DNA of 52,351 nt, taken from positions 1-52,351 of the IMG/VR virus record IMGVR_UViG_3300017774_001562. The stretch is one strand, 5' to 3'. Below are positions 591 to 17,976 of this stretch, piece after piece. Made by a program: the position numbers and the translations under genes. Every line of letters starts with the position of its first letter. Within the stretch, counting starts at the first letter, position 1. Source of the DNA: a virus. Taxonomy: Duplodnaviria > Caudoviricetes. The notes below the pieces were generated by a model. That model saw nothing but the letters and a program-made list of their open reading frames with translations, did not search any database and was not told where the DNA came from.

Positions 591-1001
591 TCAAATGTCG
601 CCGTCTGCTCGGTTTTCTGAATGGAATACGTCGAAAGCACCATCAGGATATCGTGCTGTGAGTTTCATGACATTTGTTAATACAACTTCATTCAAGTCAA
701 CCTCCAACCCTAGCATCGCTTGAGTGAAATACCAATACACATCACCTAGTTCTTTAAGTAAATGAATTCTATTTTCTTCTGTTAATTCTTTACCTTGAAA
801 GACTAACTTCTTAATAATCTCAGTAAACTCTCCTGCTTCAGCAGACATTCCTACAGCAGCAGTCATAAGACGAGCAATAGGAACATCACGTTCGTTTAAT
901 TGCTGTATGCGAGCAATCATTTCTTCGTTGCTTTTAGATGGATAACTTGTAGTGCTATCCACAAACTGAGTATACTTATCTAGATCAACTTGCTTTGTCA
1001 T
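591..1001 (-). CDS. mazG: MazG-like nucleoside triphosphate pyrophosphohydrolase
   Basis: AEAGEFTEIIKK...KELGDVYWY (ExxE...ExxD acidic motif); usual position after gp41 in cyanomyoviruses. Confidence 0.9.
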   Translation of the reverse strand: MTKQVDLDKYTQFVDSTTSYPSKSNEEMIARIQQLNERDVPIARLMTAAVGMSAEAGEFTEIIKKLVFQGKELTEENRIHLLKELGDVYWYFTQAMLGLEVDLNEVVLTNVMKLTARYPDGAFDVFHSENRADGDI

Positions 1002-2374
1002 ACAATAAATTCGGTAAACTTGCTAAATTTGTTTTGTGCTTTTGGTTGCTCTTCATATTCTTCATCATCAATAATAATCGAAGATGTATCGGCAACATCT
1101 ACATTATACAACTTCATCTTAGATCTGTCAACTCCAATCAAAAATCTTTTATTAAAAGTAGGATCGTTATAACGATTTTTTAATTGTTTAACTAAAATGT
1201 GACCATTTTTTTCCAAATCCTCTGTAGAGATGAGAGCAAACATAAAGTCAGCAGTAGCTGGCAAGCCAAAAGACTCACTGGTATCAGTGAGATCGACATC
1301 GCTATTACCAAACCCACTCCTAGTAGTTTGTGTGGCAGTGACAATGGGCACGTTGTGTTCGACCGCCATTCCTCTAAGTTCTTCTGCAATCGCCTTGACA
1401 TATGTATATGAGTTTACAATAGCACCTTTGTATCTAGACGAAGAGCATATATTTAAATAATCAATAAAAATAATTTCTGGTTTAAATGATTTCTTCAATG
1501 ATAATTCATTTAGTAATCCTTTAAAATGACCTGCATGAGCTGCGGCAGTTGGGTATTCTTTAATGATAAGGCGACCTTGTGTTTTCTTACCAATTTCGCG
1601 AATACGAGAAGTAAAAATACTTTCTGGTATAGCACCAATATCTTTAATATTTACATTCAAAAGATTAGCATCGATGCGCTCAGCAATTTTTTCTTCTGCC
1701 ATTTCAAGAGTAATGTATAAAACATTTTTACCTTGTTGCATACAACTAGCAGCACAATGGCACATAAACAATGACTTACCAACACCTGTGCCAGCAAGCA
1801 CAACGTTTAATGTTTTGTTAGGAATACCACCCTTCGTAATAGAATTAAATTTTTCTAAATCAAAAGGAATTTTAGATTCTTTTAAATGATAAAAATCATA
1901 TCTTTCTTCTGCATTTTGCACGTAGTCATGCCCTACATGTTCGTCGAAAGATACTGCCAGGGCCTCTTGGAGTATGGCGGGGATCGCATCTGGTGATACT
2001 TTTGTATTGCCTCCATCTGCGATTTTGATAGACTCCAAGAGGGCAAGATAGATGGCTCTGTCTTTACACCATTTTTCTGTGGTGTCAAGCAACCAGTTGT
2101 GTTCGACTGGGGCATTGGTAAGACTTTGAATAGTCTTAACAGCATTTTGATATACTTCTTCATTTAAATCTTTCCTACTTTCTAAATTAATGATAAGCAC
2201 TTCTGCTGTTGGTAGCATCTCGTAGTTATTTGCAAAATTCCAGACTTCCTCATAAATTATCTTTTCGTGTATCTCATTAAAATAATCTGGTTTAACAAAA
2301 GGCACAACCTTCCTATAAAAAGGTTCGTTACAAAGAAGGTTACGCAGAATTGTTGTCTCTATTCTTTCACTCAT
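998..2374 (-). CDS. gp41: DnaB-like replicative helicase
   Basis: Walker [41 protein letters not shown]. Confidence 0.97.
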
Positions 2375-3380
2375 CTACTACTCCATACATGAATTCTTTC
2401 TTAGCACATTCATCTAAAGCTTGGAGAATTTCTGGAGTAAAGTATTTCTCTGGTTCTTTATAGATGACAGAAGGATATACTGTGCCACCAGCAATCTTAA
2501 CTCTATTACCAACTACTTCAAATACTCCGTGCTTTGATCCAAGTTCAACTAATCCATAATACTTATCAAGACCGCGTGAATCATAATACAATCTTGTTTC
2601 CACTAATGAATTTTCTTTAGTGAAGCGTGACTTCTGTGTCTTGACTTTAATGATGTTACCAATAACTTCAGTGCCATCTTTCTCTTTCTTTTTAGAAAGG
2701 AAAAGAATACTAGAAGCAGAATACTTCAGACCACTGCCACCACCCATTTCTTTAGTTGGCACATAAGCACCAACAACATCATAAGTGTGATTCGTAACAA
2801 TCATAGGAATTTCTGCTTGACCCATCTTGAGTGAAAGAATACGAAAGATGGATTTGATAAGCTGAGCACGAGTCATGTCTTTGGTCTCCTTACCATCGGT
2901 AGCATCTTGTATTTCTTTAGTAGTGGAAAGCATTCCTAATGAATCAAGCACAAAAAGCAAAGGAGGTCTATCTGCTTTTTTTAATTTCATATAAGAATCA
3001 ATAATCTTAATACTCTGAGTACGAAATTCTTGAACGGTAGATACAGGAACAAGTCCCACTCGTTTAATATCTATGCCACGACCAGATAACATATTCTTTT
3101 CAATAGCTGATTCTGTTTCGAAATAAATTACCTGCGCTTCTGGATTATTTTGTAAAAAATATTTTACAATAGAGAGAGAAAAAAACGTTTTCCCTGTGCC
3201 AGTTTCTCCAGCGATAGCAGTAATTTTATTTGATGGCAGACCACCAAAGATACTCCCACTAATAAGAGCATTCAATATGTAGCTACCAGTGTCTACAAAT
3301 GTGTTACACACAGTTGTGTCTTCAACTATATTTGCATGTTCGTTATCCAACTCCTTAATAACAGACTGTAAAAAATTCAT
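2367..3380 (-). CDS. uvsX: RecA-like recombinase UvsX
   Basis: [33 protein letters not shown]; lies between gp43 and gp41. Confidence 0.96.
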
Positions 3381-3386
3381 AATACC

Positions 3387-5879
3387 TCAACTAAAGAAAC
3401 TTGTAAGCGAACCACGACGTTCGTATTGCCATCCAATACATTCTAGCACAGTTTTCAGTGGTTCGAGAAATGATTTTTCAAACTGTGTGGAGTAATCAAC
3501 ATACTTCTCTAAATTAAACTCATTAGGAAGTCTTTGAAAAAAAGCAATAGTATTTTCTCCAATAGGATTTGGAGTTTTTAAATACAAAAATTTAATCTTT
3601 TCTCCTTCTTGAATCAACGGATACTTGTGCTCTAAATTTTTATTTTTTATATGATAGTTATACAGCAAAGCACCACGCACTTGAATAGGGCAACCTTTAG
3701 CATAGACACCATTATTTTTTTTATATTTTTGCAACCCATTACAACCACGAGGGAAAGCAATGTTAAGATAATTCTGCTCCTTAGTGTCACCTTTGATGTT
3801 ATCAATAAATTCAATCAACTCCTCATTATTTTTGGTGATGATAATGGTGTATGCTTGTATGAGCTTATCTCTAAAATAAGAAGGTGTAGAAGAACGTGCC
3901 GTTTCCATACCACAGATTTTCATCTTTGCTGCGTTATAACGCACACCTTCACTATCCCATACGTTGAGAACATAGCGTTTCTTCGCGGTCCAGAAACCAC
4001 GCTCGGCAATATTCTCACGCTTCATTGTCATCATCTGTGCGTAGGCATTGAGGTATTCTGCCAATTCTTTGTAAGAATCTTCAATATACTTTTCAAGTTC
4101 CACCGCACAGATCTTATCAAGGAACGAGACAATGCTTTCAGGAGTTTTCTCTCTGCCTGCGTATATCTTGTCAACCAGAGGACCCAGATTGAGATACATA
4201 GAATCAGTATCAGAAGCAATAACATAGTCAGCACCTTTTGTTTTTAGAATCTTATTCAGATAAGCATTCATCTTATTACCAATCCAGCGAATAGCAAGCT
4301 GACCTGATAGTGTGATTGCTTCAGCGATTTCAAGTTTGTAGTAACGAAAGTGCTCGTTACCAATAGCACCATAGGCAGAGTTAAGTTGAATCTTACGTGC
4401 CATCTGAATGTTGTTACACCGAGAAATCTCTTTCTTCAACTCAATTGTTGGTTTGTTTTCATACTGCTGTTTAGCAGCAAGCATCTTCTTTTTATAGATG
4501 GTGCGATCCTCATATATCTTCTTCATCAGCTTGGGAAGAAACCCCTCGTGCTTGGTGGTGTAGTGCGTCCCATTGGCACACAGAGTCTCCCCTGAGAGGT
4601 CTGAAGTATCAAACTCTTTACCTAGTAGCATATCCACATTGACGCTGCTACGGTGAGGCAGGAGCGTCTCGGGAGAAAGGTTATATTGCATAATCAAATG
4701 CGGATACAGAGAGTTAAGGTCAAATGAAACTACCCAATCATACATACCAGGCACTGGTTCTTTAACATAAGCACCAGCATATTGAGCGTTTTTTGAAGAT
4801 TGATGTTTTGGTGGAATAGCAATCTTCATCTTATCAAGATAGATGTAAATAATATTATCCCACATACGCACCTGAGAATATACATCCTCATAATTTACCT
4901 TAGCATCATACGCCATAGTAAACGCAAGCTCAATCAACTTCATTTTATCTTCTAACTGATCTACAAGACGCACGTCAATTATATTATACTTAACAAACTT
5001 GTCCCAATCTTTAGTATAGAATTCCTTAAAGGTGTCAAACTCAGAGTGATCAAGTTTCTTGGCATCAAGTTCTACAGAAGCAATATGGTCAAGCCTATAT
5101 GATTCTTGGTTGGTATAAGTAAACTTCTTATACAACTCAAGGTAATCTAAACAAGCAACACCTGTAATGTCATACGCAAAGTTTTTACGCCCCTTAATAT
5201 AAATTTCACGACCAGAAACTAATTTCCAAGGAGAAAGTAATTTTGTATGTTTTTCTCCAAGAATACGATTCATGCGATTGCAGATGTATGGAATATCAAA
5301 TAGTTGTACATTCCAACCAGTTACAACATCAGGAGTATTTTCCTGCCACCACTTGAGAAAGCAAGAAAGAAGTTTTGTTTCGTTGTCACAGTGCATGTAA
5401 TCAACTTGTTTGTCTTCATTCTTAAAACTTTTTGATCCCCAAACAATGATACGATTTGTAAAAGAATCACGCAGAGAAATAAGTAGAATCTCTTGATCTG
5501 CGGTTTCAATATTTGGAAAACCATTTTCAGCACCTGTTTCAATATCAAGTGTGAATACTCGGATTAAAGAAGAATCATATTTGATTTCATCAGTTGGATA
5601 TTTTTCATTTATGTATTGATACAAATACCTGGTGTTTCCATGAATTTCAAATTCTTCAACTCCTTCGTATTGATTAACAAATTGTCTACAATCAGCAATA
5701 GTGCCAGGTTGCATACGACGTAAATTTCTACCATCAAGACTTTTATAATCTGATTTTTTGTCTGAAGAAACAAAAAGAGAGGGTTTAAACTCCTCTCTAT
5801 ACATTACATCTGTGCCATTTTCATGAGCACGAATTAAAATTTTATTGCCTACTTGCTCAATATTCTTATAAAATTTCAT
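3387..5879 (-). CDS. gp43: Family B DNA polymerase (unsplit, no intein)
   Basis: ExoI DIET, SFDLNSLYPH, KIQLNSAYG, ASDTDS, KKRY. Confidence 0.98.
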   Translation of the reverse strand: MKFYKNIEQVGNKILIRAHENGTDVMYREEFKPSLFVSSDKKSDYKSLDGRNLRRMQPGTIADCRQFVNQYEGVEEFEIHGNTRYLYQYINEKYPTDEIKYDSSLIRVFTLDIETGAENGFPNIETADQEILLISLRDSFTNRIIVWGSKSFKNEDKQVDYMHCDNETKLLSCFLKWWQENTPDVVTGWNVQLFDIPYICNRMNRILGEKHTKLLSPWKLVSGREIYIKGRKNFAYDITGVACLDYLELYKKFTYTNQESYRLDHIASVELDAKKLDHSEFDTFKEFYTKDWDKFVKYNIIDVRLVDQLEDKMKLIELAFTMAYDAKVNYEDVYSQVRMWDNIIYIYLDKMKIAIPPKHQSSKNAQYAGAYVKEPVPGMYDWVVSFDLNSLYPHLIMQYNLSPETLLPHRSSVNVDMLLGKEFDTSDLSGETLCANGTHYTTKHEGFLPKLMKKIYEDRTIYKKKMLAAKQQYENKPTIELKKEISRCNNIQMARKIQLNSAYGAIGNEHFRYYKLEIAEAITLSGQLAIRWIGNKMNAYLNKILKTKGADYVIASDTDSMYLNLGPLVDKIYAGREKTPESIVSFLDKICAVELEKYIEDSYKELAEYLNAYAQMMTMKRENIAERGFWTAKKRYVLNVWDSEGVRYNAAKMKICGMETARSSTPSYFRDKLIQAYTIIITKNNEELIEFIDNIKGDTKEQNYLNIAFPRGCNGLQKYKKNNGVYAKGCPIQVRGALLYNYHIKNKNLEHKYPLIQEGEKIKFLYLKTPNPIGENTIAFFQRLPNEFNLEKYVDYSTQFEKSFLEPLKTVLECIGWQYERRGSLTSFFS

Positions 5880-6237
5880 CAGTTTCTTCAGTCTCCTGTA
5901 GTTGCTCTGGTGGTATCACATCGATATATGCTTTCAGCAATTCGGCATTAGGACTAAGAATAGTCAAAATATTATCCGAGCTGAAAACAACCTCTCTTTG
6001 ATCAGTATACCACGGCCAACGCTCAAGCGCAACCCTTTTCTGACAGGGTTTGCCAATTAGATCATCTGCAGGTAAATTAGCAATCCACTTTTCTTCTCCT
6101 TCATAAATGTAATCGGTGCCAACCGTAAATGGATTAATCAACTTACAGTCAGGTAATCCCATTTCCACATCTAACTCTTCTACCTCAGCAATAATGGATT
6201 CATTATTCTTCAATAATATCAACCTGGGATTCAACAT
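5866..6237 (-). CDS. Conserved hypothetical protein (small beta-barrel/Sm-like); start probably 6237 rather than 6267
   Basis: GGAG 9 nt before ATG at 6237; RLILLKNNESIIAEV...CKLINPF...RWPWYT; usual gene upstream of gp43. Confidence 0.75.
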   Translation of the reverse strand: MLNPRLILLKNNESIIAEVEELDVEMGLPDCKLINPFTVGTDYIYEGEEKWIANLPADDLIGKPCQKRVALERWPWYTDQREVVFSSDNILTILSPNAELLKAYIDVIPPEQLQETEETDEIL

Positions 6238-6544
6238 TTTTTTCGTCTCCATATAATTCTTCACCAAATTTTTCTAAATAAACTTTTAAAAGATCTTCCT
6301 CGACTTCTCCCAATGTAACAACATAACCATAAGGAATATGAAATTTATTGTCAGCAGAGAAAGGATTCCATTTACTAAAGTTGACACAATATTCAGTTGG
6401 GTTATCTTCTTTAGGATTTACATGAAGAATGTAAGGGCATTTAATAAGCAAGCAAAGATTTTTATTGGTTTCGCTATCTTTAACTTCAGATACACCAGCA
6501 ATAATTCTTTCTCCAATGTTTGTAACTAAAATTTTAAGAATCAT
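6203..6544 (-). CDS. Conserved hypothetical protein (likely paralogue of the downstream ORF)
   Basis: KILVTNIGERIIAGV...CPY...KWNPFS; directly downstream of a sigma70 promoter. Confidence 0.75.
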   Translation of the reverse strand: MILKILVTNIGERIIAGVSEVKDSETNKNLCLLIKCPYILHVNPKEDNPTEYCVNFSKWNPFSADNKFHIPYGYVVTLGEVEEDLLKVYLEKFGEELYGDEKNVESQVDIIEE

Positions 6545-6565
6545 AATATTTTAAAGTGTATTAAT

Positions 6566-6594
6566 ATTATAGCATAAAAAGAAAAGGGAGTCAA
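6566..6594 (-). promoter_or_regulatory. sigma70-type promoter TTGACT-N17-TATAAT with extended -10 TG, driving the gp43-uvsX-gp41 unit
   Basis: Minus strand reads TTGACT cccttttctttttatgc TATAAT; spacer is 17 nt. Confidence 0.85.
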
Positions 6595-6620
6595 GACTGG
6601 ATTTTGCCAGCATCGACTCC
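6576..6620 (-). terminator. Intrinsic terminator-like hairpin after hsp20
   Basis: GGAGTC-GA-TG-CTGG caaaat CCAG-TC-TT-GACTCC followed by CTTTTCTTTTT. Confidence 0.7.
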
Positions 6621-6652
6621 AAGCGACAACAATAGAAAGGGGTAGCCACTCT

Positions 6653-6659
6653 TATTTAT
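6653..6659 (-). promoter_or_regulatory. Late promoter ATAAATA just after the hsp20 stop
   Basis: Exact motif, followed by about 70 nt of non-coding sequence ending in the hairpin. Confidence 0.55.
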
Positions 6660-6663
6660 TAGA

Positions 6664-7107
6664 TTACACTTCTTCTATCAAAAATTGTTTTTTTGATTTT
6701 TCAATGTTATAAGTTATTCTTTTTTGATGCTCTGGAATAATTTGCTGTAATGAAATTGTAAGTAATCCATCTTCAAAATTTACTGTAGATACTTTTACAT
6801 CATCTCCAAGTTGCCATGTATTAATGAATGATCTTTTAGAAAGTCCTTTGTGTAAATATGTTCTGTCAGAATCTCGTTTCTCAACCTTAGAGGTAATTCG
6901 GAGAATGTTTTGTTCTGTAGAGATTTCAATCTCATCTGGTTTAAATCCAGCAAGAGCGATTTCAATTTCATAGTTAGAAGCATCTTTTTTGATTATGTTA
7001 TATGGTGGATAACTTGTGTTATGAGTTGACATTGAGTCAAGACGAGTAAACACACTGTCTAATCCTACTCCAAATGGAGCGTATAATTGCCATGTAGTCG
7101 GATTCAT
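6664..7107 (-). CDS. hsp20: Small heat-shock protein (IbpA/Hsp20 family)
   Basis: YPPYNI, EIALAGF, YLHKGLSKRSF, FEDGLLTI; AAGGAG SD. Confidence 0.96.
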   Translation of the reverse strand: MNPTTWQLYAPFGVGLDSVFTRLDSMSTHNTSYPPYNIIKKDASNYEIEIALAGFKPDEIEISTEQNILRITSKVEKRDSDRTYLHKGLSKRSFINTWQLGDDVKVSTVNFEDGLLTISLQQIIPEHQKRITYNIEKSKKQFLIEEV

Positions 7108-7158
7108 AATTGTTCTCCTTTAATAAGCGAGTGTTATTTGAGACCCCGAAGGCATCTC
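7108..7158 (-). promoter_or_regulatory. Structured 5' leader of hsp20, ROSE-like RNA thermometer candidate
   Basis: C(UUCG)G hairpin (7140-7158), then CUCGCUU-auua-AAGGAG pairing over the SD with a bulged G. Confidence 0.6.
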
Positions 7159-7214
7159 TTAATATTATATATTCTTTTGCAATGAAAATAACCGAGGCGG
7201 TATTCTCTACAAAT

Positions 7215-7349
7215 CTATTCGGTTACTTCGGTCATCAGTATAGTATATCCTAATTTACGATACCAATCCAAATAAAATTTCCCCCATGGAATAATAAACC
7301 ACTCAGCTTTTTTAGCAGGAGTTAAAAATAAAACTCTAACCGTTCTCAT
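7215..7349 (-). CDS. Small hypothetical protein, 44 aa (MRTVRVLFLTPAKKAEWFIIPWGKFYLDWYRKLGYTILMTEVTE)
   Basis: Hand-translated, below the track cutoff; start overlaps the regA 3' end by 14 nt and fills an otherwise empty gap. Confidence 0.55.
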   Translation of the reverse strand: MRTVRVLFLTPAKKAEWFIIPWGKFYLDWYRKLGYTILMTEVTE

Positions 7350-7764
7350 CTGGTTTTTTTCTTCCGATATTATACTTACTTTCTAAAGTCCATTCTTCTT
7401 TTTCTTTGAAAGCTAATACTTTTATTTGATTGAGTGGAGCAACATCACTAATAGCATCTGGAGTGATGAGCGTAACTAATCCCCAATCAGAAAGAAGTTG
7501 AATAATTCTATTTCTACGCTGAAGATCATTTACAGAAAGGTTAGTATTTTTTCCATCAAGAGCAAACAGCTCCTTGAAATGAACGATATAATACTTACCT
7601 TGCTTATGTAAAATATGACATGATTGATAGATAATTTTTTCTTTACGAGAGGCAACTCCAATACGAGTAAGGGTCTCTCTTACTTTTAAGAAATCATCAG
7701 GTTCGTTAAGCGTTACTTCAATCATATCAGATTGATTCCATTTAACTTCAACATCAATAGTCAT
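7336..7764 (-). CDS. regA: Translational repressor RegA
   Basis: PDDFLKVRETLTRIGVAS, QSCHILHKQGKYYIVHFKELFALDG. Confidence 0.97.
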   Translation of the reverse strand: MTIDVEVKWNQSDMIEVTLNEPDDFLKVRETLTRIGVASRKEKIIYQSCHILHKQGKYYIVHFKELFALDGKNTNLSVNDLQRRNRIIQLLSDWGLVTLITPDAISDVAPLNQIKVLAFKEKEEWTLESKYNIGRKKPDENG

Positions 7765-8147
7765 CGTTTTCCACCTTTATTTAATAAACGTTTAATATCT
7801 TCAAGTTGATCCTTAGATAAAATTCTCAATGCTTGTAAAGCTTTATCGGTATTATACCCATAATATTCTTTAACTACTTCGAGATTATCAATCAATGCTT
7901 TTCTTTCCCAAGGACTAAAACGCTTCCTTGGATTGATACTATTTATCAAAAAGTCATACTGCATCTTCTTGTCTAGATGAGGATACATATTCATCTCGTT
8001 TGAAAATAAAATAGTATCGTGAAAAGCAGCAAGACACTTGTTGATAATAAAAGGTGGGTATGCTTTTTCTGATTCATTATCAAGTATTACATTCTTCTTC
8101 GTCTGATTGATAGAAGTCAGATATTCGGATAGGCTTGGTGTTGGCAT
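7761..8147 (-). CDS. gp62: Clamp loader small subunit
   Basis: YPPFIINKCL, NEMN, QYDFLINSI..RKRFSPW, VKEYYGY. Confidence 0.93.
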   Translation of the reverse strand: MPTPSLSEYLTSINQTKKNVILDNESEKAYPPFIINKCLAAFHDTILFSNEMNMYPHLDKKMQYDFLINSINPRKRFSPWERKALIDNLEVVKEYYGYNTDKALQALRILSKDQLEDIKRLLNKGGKR

Positions 8148-8970
8148 AGTTAGTAATCAAAAGTTCTGCGCGGTCTTTTTGCTCATTCATGTAGTCACCT
8201 ACAGAACGCATAGTATAAGTCAAATCCCATTTGGTTTGATAGTAATTTTTATACCACTCCATGAGTGTAGGATTGGTATTATAAGTAATCATCCAATCAT
8301 CTTTGATATTACCCTGAGTCATATAAGCATGAAACTCTTCGTGGTTAAATCCTTTGTGAAGTTCCCCTTTTTTACCATAGAGATTATCTTTAATATCATA
8401 AGGAGGATCAAGGAACCAGAAGGTATTTACTGGTGCTGGCGTCAACATCATATCCCAGTAGTTATTATTAGTAATCTTCCAGTTCTTGATGAGTTTAGAA
8501 TACTCAGGAAGTTTATCAATGCCACGCATAGAAAAGTTGCTGACACTTGCTTGCCGAGAGAAGGAAGATGATTCAGTCAGACCAGAGAAACTACACTTGT
8601 TGATGACATAGAATGCAGCAGCACGATAAACATCCCACGTATTTTCATGGTTGAGTTCATGCTTCATCTGATTAAAGAGCTCACTAGCAAGGTCAGGGGT
8701 ATTGTGTTCTTCTTTGTATCGTTTCAGAATATCATAGAGTTCATCTGATTGGTCACGCAGAATACACCAGAAGGTATACAGAGGATTGTAGAGGTCATTC
8801 ACCCACACAGGAATGTCTGGGTTCTCTTTAGTGAATGCGATAGCAACACTACCACCACCAATGAAAGGTTCACGGTATTCTGTGATATCAGAAGGGAACT
8901 TAGGAAGTAGATATTTGATGGCACGAGATTTACCACCAGGATAACGAAGAGGGGTTTTCAAAGATTTCAT
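8080..8970 (-). CDS. dam: DNA adenine methyltransferase (Dam/D12 class)
   Basis: LRYPGGKS, YREPFIGGGSV, VNDL, catalytic DPPY, ELLITNY. Confidence 0.93.
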   Translation of the reverse strand: MKSLKTPLRYPGGKSRAIKYLLPKFPSDITEYREPFIGGGSVAIAFTKENPDIPVWVNDLYNPLYTFWCILRDQSDELYDILKRYKEEHNTPDLASELFNQMKHELNHENTWDVYRAAAFYVINKCSFSGLTESSSFSRQASVSNFSMRGIDKLPEYSKLIKNWKITNNNYWDMMLTPAPVNTFWFLDPPYDIKDNLYGKKGELHKGFNHEEFHAYMTQGNIKDDWMITYNTNPTLMEWYKNYYQTKWDLTYTMRSVGDYMNEQKDRAELLITNYANTKPIRISDFYQSDEEECNT

Positions 8971-10420: not shown

Positions 10421-11079
10421 GGCTCCATAGCAATATAGTAAGTCAAATCAAAGTTAGTATGTTTCCATTCGGTAATTGAATGTTTAGATGCACCTACGTT
10501 ATAATCACCCGATAGCAATCTAAGATTTTCTACTTTGAGATGAAGATTATGTTTTCCATCAAAATCACCGTTTACAGTAATATCATAAACATGCGATGTA
10601 TCATTTTCTAAATCTCTAACAGATAATAAAATCTCTTCATCTGTATCGATAACAAAATCGGGAAGTTTATATACGTTAGATGCTTTGTTGAGTGATAAAA
10701 TATCGTTTGCTGTCAAAGAAAATGTAATATCAGATCCTGGATAATTTACCTTTTTATCAGGAGCAGTCTTAAGTGTAATTTCAGGGTCACTAAAATAATA
10801 TTTGACACGACTACGGCCAGATTTAATAGTAAGATAATCTTCATTATCAAATACTAAACTAGGACTGTCAAATAAAGACAACCCAGCAAGAAACTGACTA
10901 AGATCATAGATAGCAAACGTTTGTGGAAAAGTTTCTTCTATTGTTACAAAAGAAAGAATATTTTCTTGATTGCTAATAGTGCGAAGAATGTTTCCTTCTT
11001 TGATTACAATAGAAGTATTGATTGTGCAAAAGTTTTTGAGAATGTCAATAGTAGTTTTGGAAAGTGCAACAGTGCTCAT
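10417..11079 (-). CDS. gp45: Sliding clamp
   Basis: LKNFCTINTSI, FAIYDLSQFL, YYFSDP, YYIAME; synteny. Confidence 0.95.
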   Translation of the reverse strand: MSTVALSKTTIDILKNFCTINTSIVIKEGNILRTISNQENILSFVTIEETFPQTFAIYDLSQFLAGLSLFDSPSLVFDNEDYLTIKSGRSRVKYYFSDPEITLKTAPDKKVNYPGSDITFSLTANDILSLNKASNVYKLPDFVIDTDEEILLSVRDLENDTSHVYDITVNGDFDGKHNLHLKVENLRLLSGDYNVGASKHSITEWKHTNFDLTYYIAMEP

Positions 11080-11387
11080 AATTTAAATTCAGAAAGACCG
11101 TTTTCGAGACGGGTGTAATGTTTATCAAAATGAAGCAGCAGCATGGCGTAGTGTATTACCTTTAGCAAGTCACGTTTGTTATGACCATCCTTATCACCGT
11201 AACGACTGCCATACTTAAGAATATTAGCTTGACAGAAATCTGGTGCCAAGTCTTTTGCTGCGATCAAATCAATAGTTTGGATTTCTTTATAGGCATCGTT
11301 ATGCCCACAGTAGTGACTGCTATATGTGCCAGATACATAATCTTCAATATCTTTAAGGATTTTATCTTCAGTATATTTCCATTGCAT
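11076..11387 (-). CDS. DUF3310-like protein (T7 gp1.7-related family)
   Basis: SHY...QTIDLI...FCQANILKYGSRYGDK...DLLKVIHY. Confidence 0.75.
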   Translation of the reverse strand: MQWKYTEDKILKDIEDYVSGTYSSHYCGHNDAYKEIQTIDLIAAKDLAPDFCQANILKYGSRYGDKDGHNKRDLLKVIHYAMLLLHFDKHYTRLENGLSEFKL

Positions 11388-11389
11388 AA

Positions 11390-11593
11390 TTAATTTTTCC
11401 CCATAATGGATTCTATCATATCATAATAACACGTAAAAGGATCATAGTCAAGTGTTAGTTTATTTTTATACCTATGACCAATATAACAACAGACTTCCTC
11501 CATACTATGAGTTTGACATATTTTACATTTTATTAAAAAAAGATTACCATCCTTTAAACGCACAAGTGTATTACGAGGAAGATCATCAAACAT
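11390..11593 (-). CDS. Small hypothetical protein (start probably MFDDLP at 11593)
   Basis: The internal ATG overlaps the upstream stop by 8 nt, and the ORF ends 2 nt before the next gene. Confidence 0.6.
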   Translation of the reverse strand: MFDDLPRNTLVRLKDGNLFLIKCKICQTHSMEEVCCYIGHRYKNKLTLDYDPFTCYYDMIESIMGKN

Positions 11594-12677
11594 TTGTCTC
11601 GATGATTTCAACAACATCTTCATTAATAGAAGCATCAATCTTAGAGTAGAGCTCTAAGAAGGATTGTTTAGTCTCATCATCAAAACGAGCAACACAAACA
11701 TCAATTGCTTTTTTACGTTTACCAAAAATACCAAAGGCACGAATGATATGAACTAAGCGACGAGTAGAGATGACTTCATCAACTCCACCATCATAAAAAG
11801 TTTTGCGTATAATATCAGCCCAAGCAACTAGGCGATCAACAAACTCAGCATCATAGCAATTAATTGATTCTGCTACTTTTTTAAGAATAGAAGTCTCAAC
11901 TTTGACATTAGGATATGCTTGCTCAAAAGTTACAGGGAAACGCTCAAGGAAAGCTTCGTTAAGCATATTAGTGCCAATGAAGCGACCGTCCTCACTACCC
12001 TTACCTTTTGTGTTAGCCGTAGCAACTATATTAAAACCAGCAGTAGGTTTCACATATTTACCAATCTTCTTCAGAAAGACACCTTTACCTTCTAGGACTG
12101 ATTGAAGGCAAAGGATTTTATTAGATGCGAGATCCACTTCATCGAGAAGTAGGATTGCGCCACGCTCAAGGGCTTGGATGACTGGTCCATTGTGCCACAC
12201 TGTTTCGCCATTAACAAGGCGGAAACCCCCAATAAGATCATCTTCATCAGTTTCAATAGTAATGTTTACACGAATCAATTCACGTTTAAGTTGAGCACAC
12301 GCCTGCTCCACACTAAAAGTTTTGCCATTACCAGATAAACCAGTGATGAAGATAGGATAATATTGCCGACTAGAAAGGATTTTTTTAACGTCTGGAAAAT
12401 TCCCGAACGGGAAAAACGTAGGGTCTTTAGTTGGAATAAGGTTGAATTCTTCCCGAACGGGAACAGGCATAGAGATCACAGCAGGTTGATTAAATACTTC
12501 TTCAAGTTTTTCTACAGCAGTTAAATGCCATAGACCACGTTGAATTTTAAATGATTTTAATTCTTTAGCTAGAGTTTGGTATCCAATACCAGATTCTGTA
12601 GCGTAAACGTGAAGGTCAGCAGCAGTCACCACCTGACCAAAACGATCAATGAGTGGAGAGACTTCAAAGTTTTTCAT
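11586..12677 (-). CDS. cobS: MoxR/CobS-like AAA+ ATPase
   Basis: GLSGNGKT, LLLDEVD, ATANTKGKG, NEAFLERF, ISTRRL. Confidence 0.9.
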   Translation of the reverse strand: MKNFEVSPLIDRFGQVVTAADLHVYATESGIGYQTLAKELKSFKIQRGLWHLTAVEKLEEVFNQPAVISMPVPVREEFNLIPTKDPTFFPFGNFPDVKKILSSRQYYPIFITGLSGNGKTFSVEQACAQLKRELIRVNITIETDEDDLIGGFRLVNGETVWHNGPVIQALERGAILLLDEVDLASNKILCLQSVLEGKGVFLKKIGKYVKPTAGFNIVATANTKGKGSEDGRFIGTNMLNEAFLERFPVTFEQAYPNVKVETSILKKVAESINCYDAEFVDRLVAWADIIRKTFYDGGVDEVISTRRLVHIIRAFGIFGKRKKAIDVCVARFDDETKQSFLELYSKIDASINEDVVEIIETNV

Positions 12678-12700
12678 GGTGAGTTGTTTTGTATGTAGTT

Positions 12701-12729
12701 ATTATAGAGGAAAAGAGGTGAAAGCGCAA
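12701..12729 (-). promoter_or_regulatory. sigma70-type early promoter TTGCGC-N17-TATAAT
   Basis: 17-nt spacer, in the intergenic gap upstream of the cobS-like gene. Confidence 0.75.
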
Positions 12730-12745
12730 GCACTCATTGATTAGA

Positions 12746-14872
12746 TTAACTGATGAGTGAAGCAAAAGAAGTTAGCATTTTCTTATTGACTCCTTTCTTA
12801 GCAAGTGATTTCGTAAAGGCAGCACCGATTTGTTTATTGGTAGCATTCTCATCTACATCAAAATCAACAGAAGAAGAAAGATTATCAAGTGCCATTAGAT
12901 ACAAAGATTGATAACCCATAAAATCAACTAGCTCAACAGACTTAGATTTTTTCCATTGCTTTTGAATATTTTCATAAGAAATTTTAGATTCTCCATTGTT
13001 ACATATATTAGAAAGATTTCTCCCACTAATAAGACGAATGCCAATCAGATTAATGTCTGGGTGACGATCACGAATACACTGAAGAAAGATTGAAGTAATC
13101 ATATCTGCTTGATAACTTGAAGATTTAAAACGAGGATATACACGACCAGTCTTACGGTCACGCAGCACACAATCATTATCAATATAATTTCTACCAATTT
13201 TTACATAAGATCCACGCTTATACTCCATAAGATAGTTAATGGATTGAGCTTCACCATCAGTCAAAATAACAACATTAGTTTTTTGGACTTTATTACGTTT
13301 TTGAAAGTCTGGAATAAGCACAGTCAAAGCAATCACAGATTCATTTAAAGGAGTGCCAGACAAAGCATAACCAGGCGGTTGACTGTAATTAATAAAACTT
13401 TTAAAACGACTGTAATCACTATAACCATAAGTAAGACGCCAGAAGTTTTTAAGTTGTGCTTCAAGATCTTTACCATTACGATTATTACTAGTGACCATAT
13501 TCAGAAGACGAAAGTTTTCTTCCACATTAACGTAACCAGAAACTTGTTTATGATGTGCGTAAGATTTATCACGTGTCATTGTAGTATAATCAAATGATTT
13601 TGAATACCAGTAATCATTAGTGAAAGCGTAGATATCAAAAGGAATTTGGACTTTTTTACAAAACCAAGCAAGGTTAAGAAGTTGTTTGACAGTATCATGT
13701 AAACAACTACCCATAGATCCAGACCAATCAAGAATAAAAATCATACCGTGATTTTTACCATCAGGCACTATATTGATTTTTTTGAATACATCTTCATTCC
13801 ACTTGTAGGTATGAAGTTTTTGCGTATCAAGAATACCAGTCTTCGCAGTGCTAGAGCGAGCGTATTGATCTGCTGATTTACGCATCTCAAACTCTTTCAC
13901 CAGATAGTTTACCTCACGTTGAGCTTCACTGCGAAACTCTAGATACTGTTTATCAGCATCAGTAAACAACTCAGCACATTGCTCGCCATATGTTTCACTA
14001 CAATCTTTCATCACCTGTTTATTAGAAATAACAAACGTATTCAAATCTAGTGGTGGTATCTCAACATAGTCAATTGATCTAGAATGAGAAGAATTAAGTT
14101 GTCTTTGTTTTTCAGAGAATGCTTTATTAGTTTCAGATTCTAGATTATTGATGCCGCCAATATCACTACCAGCGCCAGAGACATCGGGTTGCTCATCAGC
14201 ATCTTCAGGTTGACTCTGCCCCTCACTCTGCCCCTGACTCTGTCCTTCACTCTGCCCCTCAGTTGAATCACCACCAGATTGAGTAGTCTCGTCGGTGTTA
14301 ACATCTGCCTGAATCTTTTCCAACTCTTGCTCCCGAGTATAGGCAAGAATCTGACGAGCAGCTTCCACTACCTGTGCGAAAGTTTCTGCTTGTGAAACCA
14401 TATCGGATAGTGTTTTTTCTTTTTCGTTAAAAGGAATTATCATACCAGCGTGAAGACCAATCTTAAAGTAAAGATTGATACGATCAATTAAGGTATAACT
14501 ATCCATATCACGATCACCTATTTCAAAGAAATCTTGAGTATGTAACTCTTGATAAGCATCATAAAAGTTACGAGCAAGGCCAGGAAACTTACGCTTCATC
14601 ATCTTTTCAATACGAGCATCCTCTACCACGTTAAGGTAGGACTGTGGCACTTGATGATCTTCACCCCACTCGTCTGGGGTATACAGAGCGTGACCAACCT
14701 CATGACCCACCAGCATGTCGTATACGTTGGGTGACGCTATGTCCCACATAGGTAAGGTCAGCACACGATCTTTTATATTAAACATAGCAGTCTCAACCTG
14801 ACGATGCTCCACGATAAGATTTTCGGTTGCTAGCAGGCGGGCTAAGTTGCCCTTGACTTCCATATTCAGCAT
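12746..14872 (-). CDS. CobT-like protein: N-terminal HExxH metallopeptidase-like domain, acidic linker, C-terminal VWA domain
   Basis: VGHEVGH and NVVEDARIE; MIDAS LDWSGSM, GTPL, ILTDGE; adjacent to a MoxR ATPase. Confidence 0.88.
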   Translation of the reverse strand: MLNMEVKGNLARLLATENLIVEHRQVETAMFNIKDRVLTLPMWDIASPNVYDMLVGHEVGHALYTPDEWGEDHQVPQSYLNVVEDARIEKMMKRKFPGLARNFYDAYQELHTQDFFEIGDRDMDSYTLIDRINLYFKIGLHAGMIIPFNEKEKTLSDMVSQAETFAQVVEAARQILAYTREQELEKIQADVNTDETTQSGGDSTEGQSEGQSQGQSEGQSQPEDADEQPDVSGAGSDIGGINNLESETNKAFSEKQRQLNSSHSRSIDYVEIPPLDLNTFVISNKQVMKDCSETYGEQCAELFTDADKQYLEFRSEAQREVNYLVKEFEMRKSADQYARSSTAKTGILDTQKLHTYKWNEDVFKKINIVPDGKNHGMIFILDWSGSMGSCLHDTVKQLLNLAWFCKKVQIPFDIYAFTNDYWYSKSFDYTTMTRDKSYAHHKQVSGYVNVEENFRLLNMVTSNNRNGKDLEAQLKNFWRLTYGYSDYSRFKSFINYSQPPGYALSGTPLNESVIALTVLIPDFQKRNKVQKTNVVILTDGEAQSINYLMEYKRGSYVKIGRNYIDNDCVLRDRKTGRVYPRFKSSSYQADMITSIFLQCIRDRHPDINLIGIRLISGRNLSNICNNGESKISYENIQKQWKKSKSVELVDFMGYQSLYLMALDNLSSSVDFDVDENATNKQIGAAFTKSLAKKGVNKKMLTSFASLIS
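14213..14260. repeat. 4 x 12-bp tandem repeat (EGQS)4 in the VWA protein linker
   Basis: actctgcccctc / actctgcccctg / actctgtccttc / actctgcccctc. Confidence 0.9.
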
Positions 14873-14895
14873 TTGTTTCTTTTGACGTTAGACCT

Positions 14896-14924
14896 ACTAT
14901 ACGACAAAAGGGACGCCAAAGCAA
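14896..14924 (-). promoter_or_regulatory. sigma70-type early promoter TTGCTT-N17-TATAGT
   Basis: 17-nt spacer, upstream of the VWA gene. Confidence 0.65.
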
Positions 14925-14928
14925 CCCC
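14906..14928 (-). terminator. Weak terminator-like hairpin after gp46
   Basis: GGGGTTGC tttg GCGTCCC TTTT. Confidence 0.5.
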
Positions 14929-14935
14929 TAATAAA

Positions 14936-16660
14936 TTATTCTGATGTTTCCTCAGTGACATATGAGAAATTCTTATGCTTGTCGAATCGTAAACAACGAC
15001 TAAATTTATCTGCCATATTATCACGATGAGAAATTACAAATACATTTGTCTTATCATCAAACGTTTGTAGAATCCAACTTAAGTCACTGTTGCCAGATTG
15101 ATCTAATGACCCATCAAAAATCTCATCTAGAATAAGCAAATTAGTATCAACACTATTTTTAAGTTTAGCAATAGAGCGCCAAGTAAGCAACAGAGCGATA
15201 TCAATCCTAGCTTTCTCTCCCTCACTGAAAGATTCATAACTAAACTCATCTCTATAGCGTGATTTGATTACTTCTTCAAAGTTTTCATTTAACATAAATG
15301 ATGTGGAAAACTCCATCTTATCAAGATAATCATTGATAAGTTTATTCATTGTCGGTAAATATTTTTTGATGATCCTCGTTTTGATGCCCGAGTCTTTGAG
15401 GAGTTGCGATGCGGTGAGTAAGCAATCCTTTTCTTCCTTTGTTTCTGAAACCGTTTCTTGGATTCGCTTGCCTTTCTCGTCGAGTGATTTAAGAATTGAA
15501 AACTGCTCCCGTTGATTGACATCCGAATCCCGCAGTTTTCTGATGTCGTCGTCCAACTCCTCAATTCTTCTATGAAGTGATTTAATGTCATTCGTTAAAT
15601 GTTTATTTTTTTGATTGAGATCATTAATTTCATCAATCAAAAGAATAAAGGTATCTTCTTGACTTTGGAGATCGGAAAGTTGTTGTCCCAAATCAGACAT
15701 AGCTTTCTCCACCTCAACAAGTTTATCCGAGAGAAGCGTGATCTTCTCCTGTTTAAAATGCTCCTCAATTGATTGCCCACATGTCGGGCACGAATCATTC
15801 TGCTGAAAGAATACCTTTTCTTTGTTATGTAATTTTTGTTTTGATGTAATTTTATTTCTGAGCGAATCAACCTTAGTGATCGTTGCCTTAATTTTCTTTG
15901 TGTCTGAAATGGCAAATGTCTTTTTGTTGATTGCCTCGTCGTTATTGATGATTTCTGTTTCATGATTTAATGCTTCAATTAGCAAAGTTTCCTTTCGTTT
16001 TTCTTTTTCTACAATATCTTCTTTATTCTTTTTTTCTAGGTCAAGCATAAAATTCTTTTGCATATCAATTTTTTCTTTGATAAGCGATAAATTATATTCG
16101 TGATCTTTTAATTCATCATTAATAATTTTAAATTTTTCTTTTAAGTTGACATTCATTGTTGAAAAAATTTGAATGTCAAGAATATCTTCAATGATTTCTC
16201 TGCGAGCTGACAAAGACAAACGCATGAAAGGAATAAAAGTTGATGACCCCAGCAATACAATTTGAGTAAATGATTTATAATTCATTTTCAAAATAGTCTG
16301 CTCAAAATGTTTCTGTTGATCTACAACAGAAGCGTCTTGATTTAATGTTTCGCCATTTTGATAAATTTCAAACTTCGCTGGTTTTATGCCACGCACCACT
16401 TTGTATTTATTATTACCGACATCAAATTCTAACTCAGTTACGCAATCAGTTTGATTAATTGAATTAAGTAATTGAGGCTTATTAATTTTTCTAAATGGTT
16501 TGGCAAACAAAGCAAAAGTGAGAGCATCTAGAATGGTGCTTTTACCAGCTCCATTTGCTCCCACAATAATTGTGCTTTTTTCTTTTGTTAATTCAACTTC
16601 AGTAAATTGATTCCCCGTTGAGAGAAAGTTTTTCCATTTAATCGTCTTGAAAATTATCAT
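14936..16660 (-). CDS. gp46: Rad50/SbcC-like recombination endonuclease subunit
   Basis: GANGAGKS, zinc hook CPTC, FSEGEK, LILDE, VISH. Confidence 0.97.
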   Translation of the reverse strand: MIIFKTIKWKNFLSTGNQFTEVELTKEKSTIIVGANGAGKSTILDALTFALFAKPFRKINKPQLLNSINQTDCVTELEFDVGNNKYKVVRGIKPAKFEIYQNGETLNQDASVVDQQKHFEQTILKMNYKSFTQIVLLGSSTFIPFMRLSLSARREIIEDILDIQIFSTMNVNLKEKFKIINDELKDHEYNLSLIKEKIDMQKNFMLDLEKKNKEDIVEKEKRKETLLIEALNHETEIINNDEAINKKTFAISDTKKIKATITKVDSLRNKITSKQKLHNKEKVFFQQNDSCPTCGQSIEEHFKQEKITLLSDKLVEVEKAMSDLGQQLSDLQSQEDTFILLIDEINDLNQKNKHLTNDIKSLHRRIEELDDDIRKLRDSDVNQREQFSILKSLDEKGKRIQETVSETKEEKDCLLTASQLLKDSGIKTRIIKKYLPTMNKLINDYLDKMEFSTSFMLNENFEEVIKSRYRDEFSYESFSEGEKARIDIALLLTWRSIAKLKNSVDTNLLILDEIFDGSLDQSGNSDLSWILQTFDDKTNVFVISHRDNMADKFSRCLRFDKHKNFSYVTEETSE

Positions 16661-16926
16661 GTATTTGTAGGAGGTATTATAAAATCGTTAGGAGTAACTA
16701 TAGTGTAACAGTACCCTTTATTCTCGCATATTTTTGATGCTATGTCAATGTCTGTTTCGTTAATTTCTAATTCGGGTAAGTTAGTATCAGTATCGTTATC
16801 AATAAGCAATCCTAAATATCGCTCAGCATCCTCTTCTTCTTCAAAAAATAAAATGACATGTTCTCCATCTTCTGATATCACAGAATAAACTCCTTCTGGA
16901 TGATCCTGCAAGCAGATTAAAAACAT
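16657..16926 (-). CDS. Conserved hypothetical protein (DUF3110-like)
   Basis: EGVYSV...FEEEEDAERY..LL...FIIPP; between gp47 and gp46. Confidence 0.75.
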   Translation of the reverse strand: MFLICLQDHPEGVYSVISEDGEHVILFFEEEEDAERYLGLLIDNDTDTNLPELEINETDIDIASKICENKGYCYTIVTPNDFIIPPTNT

Positions 16927-17976
16927 TCATACTACCTCACAACTTTCAATATATAGTGTCTTCATCAGGTTTTTGAGTTTATCTTTATTGACGGTTAACT
17001 CTACTTCATCAATATATTCATTAAGAAGAGTTAACGTATCTTTAACTTCAAGGTTTTCTTCGGTATCTTCAGTAGTATCGTTAACTAAAGTTTCTATAAT
17101 CTTTACATCATGAGGTTGTTGAGAAAAGATTGTATCAACAAATTTTTCAAATGCTAGATAATCTTTTTTACTATCTACTATAATCTTGACAAAAGAATTT
17201 TTACAGATACTGGTATCGAAGCTGAGATGAGAATCAGTAGAATCATTGTAATAGATTTTCTGGAAAATCTCATAAGGGTTCTTGACCCGCTTGAGTTTAT
17301 TTGTTTTTGGTTCATAGAGATGAAATCCTCGCTCGTCTTTATAATCATTCCAAAACATCTGATAAGGATTACCCAAGTAAGTGATATTACCTTTGGATGA
17401 TTTATGATGAAAGTGACCTGAAAATACTTGTTTAAATTTAGAGAAGATTTCTGGTTTCATACCACCTTCGTGTTTCATACCAGAATTTACTTCAAATCCA
17501 TCCAACTCCAAATGACCCATCACAATCTCAGCACCAGTATCTTCAAGATGCCTTAAGGCATCATCATGGTTGTTTGAGTTGATCCAAGGCAACATGAGAA
17601 TTTTAGTGCCGTCTATCATCACTGTCTCTGGTTCAGCATAGATCATGATGTTATTAAAATCTTTGAGTAGAAGCTCTGGTGAATTAATCTCATTTGTATT
17701 CTTATAATAGACACAATGATTACCAAGTATCATATGAACAACGATACCCATATCTTCAAGACGCTCAAAGTAGTTACGACGCACACGATTCCACACACTA
17801 AAATCAATGCCCTTGCGATTATCAAACGTATCCCCAAGATCAATGATTGTTTTGATGTTATGTTTTTCGAGAGTTGGAAAGAAAACATCATCATAAAACT
17901 TTTGGAAGTATTCCCAAAAATTGACACTACCTTTTCTTCCATCGAGATGCTGGTCGGTAATCAAAGCTACTGTCAT
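16927..17976 (-). CDS. gp47: Mre11/SbcD-like recombination endonuclease subunit
   Basis: TDQH, LGDTFD, GNH, MGHLE, SGHFH phosphoesterase motifs. Confidence 0.97.
   Translation of the reverse strand: MTVALITDQHLDGRKGSVNFWEYFQKFYDDVFFPTLEKHNIKTIIDLGDTFDNRKGIDFSVWNRVRRNYFERLEDMGIVVHMILGNHCVYYKNTNEINSPELLLKDFNNIMIYAEPETVMIDGTKILMLPWINSNNHDDALRHLEDTGAEIVMGHLELDGFEVNSGMKHEGGMKPEIFSKFKQVFSGHFHHKSSKGNITYLGNPYQMFWNDYKDERGFHLYEPKTNKLKRVKNPYEIFQKIYYNDSTDSHLSFDTSICKNSFVKIIVDSKKDYLAFEKFVDTIFSQQPHDVKIIETLVNDTTEDTEENLEVKDTLTLLNEYIDEVELTVNKDKLKNLMKTLYIESCEVV

Follow-up and report, generated by a model that had tools for sequence, protein, structure and literature searches.

Comparison with relatives points to an overprinted gene inside gp46, and probably to a second one inside gp47, in uncultured T4-like cyanomyoviruses

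The stretch of DNA analysed here (hereafter the window) comprises the 52,351 nucleotides of IMG/VR virus record IMGVR_UViG_3300017774_001562 and corresponds to a T4-like cyanomyovirus replication/recombination module, with all 45 long open reading frames (ORFs) on the minus strand and a G+C content of 35%. A preliminary description of this sequence had pointed to eight smaller ORFs nested within gp41, gp43, gp46 and gp47, and had proposed that they form a hidden layer of overprinted genes. When compared with relatives, these eight ORFs can with reasonable confidence be read as a mixed set, in which one ORF of gp46 (A46, 15637-15963) appears to be a genuine overprinted gene, one ORF of gp47 (C47, 17178-17348) is a probable one and a further ORF of gp46 (B46, 15346-15591) a possible one. 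The three ORFs located in gp41 (1192-1401 and 1933-2163) and in gp43 (4031-4234) are not established as genes and the remaining two (5321-5548 in gp43 and 17730-17942 in gp47) look like chance ORFs. Overall, the comparison supports at most one to three overprinted genes, all of which would lie in the recombination genes gp46 and gp47.

A46 occupies the +1 frame of gp46 (14936-16660), which encodes a 574-amino-acid (aa) Rad50/SbcC-like ATPase (Pfam AAA_23 and SMC_N, together with the host-frame alignment) and which hosts B46 as well. The cultured phages closest to the window are myoviruses of Synechococcus and Prochlorococcus, which match it at 70-76% nucleotide identity in fragments only; their gp46 is ca. 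56% identical among the 30 best-scoring records listed, with one further record in the 60-80% band. Many closer, uncultured relatives are found in IMG/VR, and homologues were taken from its loci when their best tblastn segment spanned 90% or more of the query (85% for the distant sets) and when they reached a stop codon, differed in length by no more than 10% and contained no N. Identical nucleotide sequences were collapsed, and a codon alignment and a FastTree tree were made for each host gene. The resulting close sets (at least 72% amino-acid identity, unique sequences, window included) contain 61 sequences for gp41, 13 for uvsX, 25 for gp43, 42 for gp46 and 46 for gp47, and gp23, represented by 60 sequences of 68% identity or more, was added as a further control. 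Tallies in the closest relatives, per-position changes and uvsX run counts come from smaller first sets, the rest from the enlarged ones; one gp46 comparison left out the loci L125 to L128.

In all 42 unique close gp46 sequences, A46 starts with the ATG at 15963, ends with the TGA at 15637 and is 108 codons long. An IMG/VR search by alignment of the A46 peptide further returned 64 loci, 63 of which are intact (ATG, 108 codons, stop) while one is cut by a contig end. The frame is open in all 41 gp46 homologues at 65% identity or more but in just one of 17 at 40-55%, and A46 is therefore clade-specific; its range is narrower than that of gp46, which is consistent with a de novo origin.

Selection on the nested frames was assessed by the openness of the +1 frame, by Fitch counts of synonymous and per-position changes, by change at four-fold degenerate sites, by omega-like ratios calculated for each frame and by a tree-free pairwise ratio of observed to expected synonymous differences. 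Single-nucleotide differences were also classed by their effect in both frames, SN being synonymous for the host and non-synonymous in the +1 frame and NS the reverse. Finally, the amino-acid identity of the +1 frame was compared with a column-swap null, which exchanges each host column of invariant residue for another one of identical residue taken from a different place in the gene and leaves the tree and the host protein unchanged. That such measures detect known overlaps is indicated by uvsX (2367-3380), a RecA-like gene located between gp43 and gp41, whose synonymous ratio dips to 0.45 and 0.62 at its two termini, which it shares with the gp41 start and with the region downstream of gp43.

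Within A46, four-fold sites have undergone 1.6 changes per site versus 6.5 in the rest of gp46. The pairwise synonymous ratio falls from 1.20 to 0.51 and then to 0.16 at the A46 ATG, with minima of 0.16-0.25 in windows of 15 codons. Around this start (15970-15940), the host-codon positions 1/2/3 show 4.0/1.4/2.1 and 3.5/1.6/1.4 changes versus 1.56/0.74/5.81 outside. Over the first 23 codons of A46, SN reaches 47.6 versus 223.8 in the rest of gp46 and NS 130.1 versus 6.7, with NS/SN ratios of 2.74 and 0.03, respectively; 91% of the gp46 amino-acid differences are silent in the +1 frame there as opposed to 18% elsewhere. Single residues illustrate this situation, since residue 17 of A46 is a leucine in 42 of 42 sequences by means of three codons when gp46 has six different residues at the same site, and residue 23 is an arginine in all 42, again by three codons, when gp46 has K, S, Q or T. 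The +1 omega is 0.18-0.25 in A46, where that of the host is 0.67-1.41, the +1 background being ca. 2.5 and the lowest window found outside the nested ORFs 0.55, in uvsX. The column-swap z score of A46 is 7.0. The pattern found in the first part of A46 argues for purifying selection on a +1-frame protein, because neither a signal in the nucleic acid nor a cluster of rare codons nor common descent would yield it, and selection on A46 very probably acts at the protein level.

The rest of the overlap looks different. From 15772 to the A46 stop, the pairwise synonymous ratio is again low (0.21-0.46) and lifts only partly after the stop; on this C-terminal side (15774-15640) conservation extends to both frames, and hardly any change is seen at any of the three codon positions. 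The zinc-hook motif of gp46, CPTCGQ, falls within the A46 overlap. The deduced product contains 31 K+R versus 2 D+E residues and has an isoelectric point (pI) of 12.0. Its AlphaFold2 model consists of one long helix spanning residues 19-94 (mean predicted local distance difference test score 78.8, predicted template modelling score 0.35), to which little weight was given because arbitrary sequences of basic or hydrophobic character yield such helices too. A stop occurs in the +1 frame 1-5 codons upstream of the A46 ATG in all 42 sequences and no slippery heptamer was visible by inspection between the two; expression of A46 by a frameshift that fuses the N-terminus of gp46 to the +1 frame is unlikely given this stop right before the ATG.

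The most likely explanation of these data is that A46 was born de novo in the +1 frame, across the stretch of gp46 that encodes its coiled coil and zinc hook, within a single clade of T4-like cyanomyoviruses as yet without a cultured member, and that it has been retained by purifying selection on its own protein. Ribosomes would start at an internal site of the gp46 message, the invariant A46 ATG (15963), and produce an extremely basic, mostly helical (as predicted) protein of 108 aa, which may bind nucleic acids or proteins. In the first third of the overlap, gp46 accepts almost any residue, leaving the new frame to dominate; around and after the zinc hook both frames are conserved, by which the synonymous sites freeze. 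For gp46 and gp47 alike, the most likely mechanism would be independent internal initiation at conserved ATGs of the respective messages.

The second overprinted gene would be C47, a peptide of ca. 56 aa that we consider probably real. C47 resides in gp47 (16927-17976), which encodes a 349-aa Mre11/SbcD-like metallophosphoesterase (Pfam Metallophos) and which also contains the 17730-17942 ORF. The strongest point in its favour is an internal control, in which constraint appears tied to the presence of the ORF: the ratio of synonymous difference inside and outside C47 is 0.30 in the 40 sequences that bear the ORF and 1.19 in the six that have +1 stops. In the clade devoid of C47 the gp47 protein is conserved and the synonymous constraint vanishes. 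The dip in synonymous change (0.37-0.76) spans ca. 17352-17184, near the bounds of the ORF, and four-fold sites change 3.8 times per site versus 8.8 outside. The NS class is raised (36.2 versus 5.3) and the column-swap z score reaches 7.1. At 17241, the host positions 1/2/3 change 3.4/1.6/1.4 times, and the +1 peptide is constant there while gp47 residues vary. In the 46 sequences analysed, C47 is 46-57 aa long in most relatives and 96 aa in some with an upstream start. Its N-terminal half is polar and basic and is followed by a hydrophobic C-terminal helix (maximal Kyte-Doolittle hydropathy over 19 residues of 2.41, at residue 35), the AlphaFold2 model having helices at residues 2-19, 30-44 and 47-55; C47 may thus insert into a membrane.

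The status of B46, an ORF of 81 aa with a pI of 11.5, is more tentative, and we regard it as a possible overprinted gene with somewhat less than even chances of being one. Its ATG and stop are kept in 39 of the 42 unique gp46 sequences, the exceptions being loci L125, L127 and L128 in which it is interrupted by 6-7 stops each and A46 is intact. Its pairwise synonymous ratio is 0.80 overall; the drop is confined to approximately the first 25 codons (0.53-0.61) and the remaining 57 codons evolve almost freely (SN 187 versus 224). The column-swap z score of B46 is 5.2 and its stop avoidance is supported at P=0.0012.

Next to these two ORFs, synonymous constraint was observed at 15520-15640 (minus strand), where ratios of 0.53-0.70 continue past the A46 stop and persist in the three relatives having a broken B46. 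The RNA fold z score of this segment (-1.53) is not significant. This constraint is accounted for by neither A46 nor B46, and the part of it right after the A46 stop may have a cause other than B46.

Several observations weigh against the coding interpretation of these ORFs. The middle 40 codons of A46 are unconstrained (pairwise ratio 0.9-1.2, column-swap z score 1.1), and the openness of its frame is weak evidence by itself with only ca. nine potential +1 stop sites. The bounds of C47 vary, with the first ATG at 17348, 17315 or 17465 (and absent in one of 46 sequences) and the stop at 17175, 17178 or 17223; its +1 omega (0.56-0.59) is not below that of the lowest control window (0.55, in uvsX), and its stop avoidance is marginal (P=0.053), which is a weak point. 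For B46, the constraint of the first 25 codons is equal in the three relatives in which the ORF is broken (0.49 versus 0.48). No Shine-Dalgarno-like motif occurs within 22 nt upstream of A46, B46 or C47, a feature shared with 11 of 22 ordinary genes, and a sigma-70 promoter scan of 15300-17600 gave 13 sites versus 9.7 expected, none of them placed for A46 or C47. The nested peptides had no significant match in PHROGs (best E value 0.15) or Pfam (best E value 0.11), no match in PADLOC and no usable match in the ESM Atlas, and a search of 5.8 billion proteins with A46 at near lengths scored none of five candidates. Contigs of four metatranscriptome runs (lake water/freshwater) cover parts of 14936-17976 at 90-99% identity, with DNA carry-over being possible; as assembled sequences they show coverage only and not strand, frame or transcript ends, and no conclusion on expression was drawn from them. 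Finally, the relatives are metagenome-assembled contigs with mosaic genes and the trees were built on whole genes; loci L125 to L128, for instance, are only 73% identical overall yet typical in A46. Trees of this kind would raise local Fitch counts rather than lower them, and no tree enters the pairwise measures.

Regarding the window itself, the eight nested ORFs were all recovered where the preliminary description had placed them, on the minus strand and at offset +1 from their host. The abrupt switch of the host to C- and G-ending codons that it reported over most of them was seen in six, as a rise in G+C at third codon positions inside versus outside the ORF: 0.40 versus 0.29 for A46, 0.48 versus 0.28 for B46, 0.36 versus 0.30 for C47, 0.39 versus 0.26 for 1192-1401, 0.41 versus 0.25 for 1933-2163 and 0.41 versus 0.32 for 4031-4234. 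It is flat for 17730-17942 (0.33 versus 0.31) and reversed for 5321-5548 (0.23 versus 0.33). Across relatives, the G+C of four-fold sites is 0.54-0.55 in both gp46 ORFs versus 0.27 outside. The caveat that the +1 frame is naturally poor in stops was borne out, the stop frequency being 0.063 in the +1 frame and 0.121 in the +2 frame.

The two ORFs of gp41 (998-2374; 458-aa DnaB-like helicase, Pfam DnaB_C) and one of the two in gp43 (3387-5879; 830-aa family-B DNA polymerase, Pfam DNA_pol_B and DNA_pol_B_exo1) present a less clear picture. The first, 1192-1401, would encode a hydrophobic product of 69 aa. It is open in 47 of 60 close relatives, the other 13 having stops, in 28 of 35 homologues at 65-75% identity (1.3 expected), and in at least one member of 11 out of 25 lineage clusters that are near synonymous saturation (in all members for nine of these). 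Host synonymous substitution is not locally reduced there (observed/expected ratio 1.00) and only stop avoidance is seen; with this ratio and a high SN (296 versus 234), the sequence of the peptide is therefore not conserved, the column-swap z score being 2.3. The second, 1933-2163 (76 aa), is open in 52 of 60 close relatives (8 with stops) and in 24 of 35 at 65-75% identity (3.3 expected), with a synonymous ratio of 0.82 and a column-swap z score of 5.7. Its SN (219 versus 234) and +1 omega (0.8-2.8) count against coding, and T at four-fold sites drops to 0.16 versus 0.53 outside with little reduction in rate, a shift that could equally represent a conserved preference for a codon class. The third, 4031-4234 (67 aa, GTG start), is open in 13 of 24 close relatives (11 with stops) and in 11 of 30 at 65-75% identity (0.7 expected); the GTG is kept in only two of the eight closest relatives. 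Its synonymous ratio is 0.71 with a local minimum of 0.40, NS is 23.1 versus 7.3 and the column-swap z score is 3.7.

Stop avoidance in these three ORFs was further analysed through the use of L, I and V codons ending in TA, which create a +1 stop when they precede a purine. The frequencies before purines and before pyrimidines are 0.02 and 0.35 in 1192-1401, 0.10 and 0.43 in 1933-2163 and 0.04 and 0.37 in 4031-4234, versus 0.21 and 0.19 outside the ORFs, the pyrimidine contrast resting on ca. 4-9 sites per ORF. A-ending codons of the other four-fold boxes are not avoided before purines. Resampling at the stop-safe sites of the window gave P=0.0002 for 1192-1401, 0.004 for 4031-4234 and 0.26 for 1933-2163. 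Stop avoidance is not due to conservation of the host protein, since the third of sites with the highest conservation has an unsafe fraction of 0.23, as compared to 0.31 for the least conserved sites. Based on these comparisons, none of the three is established as an overprinted gene: 4031-4234 is a doubtful candidate, 1933-2163 a more doubtful one, and 1192-1401, whose frame is kept open with a peptide that is not conserved, an unlikely one. We likewise find it unlikely, albeit conceivable, that a wider hidden set of +1 ORFs exists in the core replication genes of T4-like cyanomyoviruses, in which the gp41 ORFs, being stop-free across near-saturated lineages, reflect selection on translation through the frame or on a loose physicochemical character, such as the hydrophobicity of the peptides, and form a proto-gene reservoir of which A46 would be a matured example. 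Also in gp43, outside the nested ORFs, a synonymous dip (0.47-0.51) was noticed at 4394-4440 (minus strand), where the protein is almost invariant (ca. 0.1 changes each at positions 1 and 2); this dip may reflect codon choice at a catalytic motif.

The last two ORFs had a different fate. Only three of the 24 close relatives have an open frame at ORF 5321-5548 of gp43 (75 aa, TTG start), whose synonymous ratio is 1.03-1.05 and whose column-swap z score is -1.7. ORF 17730-17942 of gp47 (70 aa) is confined to the window and its 99%-identical relative, those at 96% and 92% identity having ACG in place of the ATG and two stops each; its pairwise synonymous ratio is 1.10 and its column-swap z score -2.0. 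The +1 stops in close homologues and the lack of any synonymous drop are what the preliminary description had named as refuting evidence, and it is hardly conceivable that either encodes an overprinted gene.

Controls located outside the nested ORFs help in reading these figures. The longest +1 ORF of the window, with 147 aa, is found at 21941-22384 (minus strand) within the major capsid gene gp23 (21531-22922, Pfam Gp23). Just one of the 18 relatives with at least 85% identity, and none of the 41 that are more distant, has this frame open; its synonymous ratio is 1.11 and its column-swap z score 0.1. The ORF was rejected as a gene and taken as a chance ORF, and it warns that length by itself means little. 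Column-swap z scores range from -3.0 to 0.1 in six control regions, and the antisense ORFs of the window mostly behave as the null predicts (e.g. 0/54 open versus 1.7 expected and 1/13 versus 0.3 expected). In uvsX, two +1 stop-free runs (3168-3347 with 63 codons and 2430-2600 with 57 codons, minus strand) are kept in 12 of 14 close relatives, their P values being circular because the runs were chosen from all sequences. The first run is also open in 51-70% of distant relatives when 12-17% was expected. No +1 ORF longer than 35 aa occurs in uvsX of the window and the alternative-frame identity of these runs is at or below the null (z scores -3.0 and 0.1), which shows that conserved openness can occur without a conserved peptide. 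In distant relatives, windows with an excess of openness amount to 5/55 in the +1 frame of uvsX and 16/153 in the antisense -0 frame of gp43. After these controls, conserved openness relative to a codon-resampling null was downgraded as evidence for most of the ORFs.

Whether all eight ORFs are by-products of composition, arising from a stop-poor +1 frame, G+C-rich or T3-rich patches and shared descent with none of them coding, can be weighed against these figures. Counting across all 45 genes gives 16 +1 ORFs of at least 56 aa, as compared to 17 and 18 in two of the antisense frames. The four host genes contain eight such ORFs when 3.2 are expected from gene-wide synonymous shuffling (500 shuffles, P=0.002); with shuffling restricted to blocks of 40 codons, which keeps local codon usage, the expectation rises to 4.3 (500 shuffles, P=0.028), and these four genes were picked after the fact. 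The excess over chance seen in the window is modest and the case from the window alone is weak; the question therefore had to be decided by comparison with relatives. There, a compositional origin fully fits 5321-5548 and 17730-17942 and finds further support in the demonstrably fortuitous gp23 ORF and in the conserved-open runs of uvsX and the excess-open windows of antisense gp43. It fails for A46, in which four-fold sites are constrained, changes concentrate at host position 1, 91% of the host differences are +1-silent and residues of the nested frame are invariant despite codon variation, and it fails for C47, the constraint of which is restricted to sequences with an intact ORF. As an account of the whole set, this explanation is very improbable. 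A constraint on the nucleic acid was also considered for gp46 and gp47, in the form of an RNA structure, a regulatory or recombination signal, or a cluster of rare codons that paces the synthesis of the zinc hook, with the +1 frame frozen alongside. Such a constraint would suit the C-terminal part of A46, which is near-invariant at all positions and where the phase of variation is uninformative, as well as the constraint that extends beyond the A46 stop to ca. 15520, including in the three relatives without B46, and the use of rare C- and G-ending codons in the constrained patches; the T depletion of 1933-2163 at little reduction in rate is what a codon-class preference would give. The first 23 codons of A46 speak otherwise, since they vary in +1 triplet phase and overwhelmingly in a +1-silent manner, and so does the loss of the C47 constraint in the clade lacking the ORF, in which the gp47 protein is conserved. 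Nor was a signal of this type detected: folding of the constrained patches gave z scores of -0.90 and -0.81 (A46), -1.53 and +0.65 versus -0.84 and -2.05 for two controls, Rfam had no match at gathering threshold in 900-18100, and promoters are not in excess. Altogether, we find a nucleic-acid origin of the gp46 and gp47 constraint quite improbable and favour selection on the encoded peptides of A46 and C47.

At the other extreme stands the full proposal of the preliminary description, namely that six or more of the eight ORFs, including those of gp41 and gp43, are translated as a hidden +1 layer. The frame-specific avoidance of TA before purines in 1192-1401, 1933-2163 and 4031-4234, to which A-ending codons of the other four-fold boxes are not subject, speaks for it, as do the resampling P values of 1192-1401 and 4031-4234, the wide openness of 1192-1401 at 65-75% identity and among near-saturated lineages, the column-swap z scores of 1933-2163 and 4031-4234, and antisense control ORFs that are mostly at expectation. 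Against this stand the unreduced synonymous ratio and high SN of 1192-1401, the stops found in close relatives of all three (13/60, 8/60 and 11/24, respectively), the poorly kept GTG of 4031-4234, the few sites on which the pyrimidine contrast rests, the similar openness conserved in uvsX and in the antisense frame of gp43, and the two ORFs that are clearly broken in the closest relatives. We regard a layer of this extent as improbable. What stands is its restricted form: local synonymous constraint together with a conserved +1 start and stop is strong in A46, well supported in C47, partial in B46 and weak in 4031-4234 and 1933-2163, so that hidden small proteins would be limited to one to three ORFs of gp46 and gp47 and a layer across all four genes is not established. 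That such products would be co-expressed with the replisome, and would be basic or membrane proteins in nature, can be suggested.

Three other sites were noted in the window, in part from a scan of its further genes with no more than 40 sequences per gene. A 68-aa +1 ORF (14140-14346) is found in a G+C-rich patch of a 708-aa gene (12746-14872) on the minus strand, where the host-synonymous class over 14113-14346 is 62-123 versus ca. 190 gene-wide and where the +1 frame is open in 60-100% of 10 sequences, relatives being few; it is a possible further candidate for a nested gene. Near the 5' end of a 177-aa gene (17973-18506, minus strand), host-synonymous differences drop sharply to 78 and 20 at ca. 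18363-18452 versus 218 gene-wide (39 sequences) and the +1-synonymous class does not rise, so that this segment looks like a constrained element. Finally, a DUF3110 ORF (16657-16926, minus strand) sits between gp47 and gp46 and has a homologue at this position in only two fetched loci; in the RNA-library contigs from the four runs, the match to the window breaks off precisely at 16660, and this ORF appears to be a mosaic insertion, variable among relatives.

A46 is kept in every sampled member of its clade while gp46 residues drift freely in part of the overlap. If translated, it would represent an unannotated phage protein co-encoded with a Mre11/Rad50-type nuclease, a possible modulator of recombination, of the processing of DNA ends or of host defence, and a clean natural case of the birth of a new protein inside an essential gene. 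It would also imply that hidden genes can be recovered from metagenomic phage contigs by codon-phase comparison, which neither ORF length nor a shift in third-position G+C can achieve alone: the 147-aa ORF of gp23 is a false lead, whereas the 56-aa C47 is probably real. To our knowledge, overlapping genes are textbook material for tiny viruses and have rarely been documented in large double-stranded DNA phages, in which annotation pipelines never call them. No nested gene in cyanophage gp46, gp47 or gp41 was found in the full-text literature, a coverage that does not extend to subscription journals.

Overprinted genes nested in the same strand as their host are a known phenomenon in viruses, as outlined in two reviews (PMC8227390, PMC3494269). 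As in such cases, A46 lies inside an older, conserved gene, has a narrower range than its host, is very basic and coincides with constrained synonymous sites of the host. Most documented cases come from small RNA or single-stranded DNA viruses under genome-size pressure, whereas A46 belongs to a double-stranded DNA myovirus (contigs of relatives reach ca. 190 kb) and spans the zinc hook of a Rad50-like gene. In phage lambda, Rz1 is located wholly inside Rz, on the same strand, in the +1 frame and with its own start codon; it is a lipoprotein with a signal sequence and a lipobox cysteine that is embedded in its functional partner within the lysis cassette. C47 is likewise a small nested peptide with a hydrophobic segment, but carries its hydrophobic helix at the C-terminus, lacks an N-terminal signal and has a host that encodes a nuclease subunit rather than a lysis protein. 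An embedded spanin of the Rz/Rz1 type, for which the host gene would be the i-spanin of a lysis cassette, was considered for C47 and not retained, given its polar and basic N-terminus, its C-terminal hydrophobic helix and its metallophosphoesterase host. In the small single-stranded DNA genome of phiX174, E is nested within D and B within A, with functions in lysis and scaffolding; these resemble A46 and C47 in their full same-strand nesting in another frame with their own internal starts, and have no relation to them in sequence or context. Closer to the present phages, the T4 genome annotation places 30.3' out of frame within 30.3, which provides a precedent for an out-of-frame nested ORF in a T4-type genome, although in a different host gene and with no sequence relationship.

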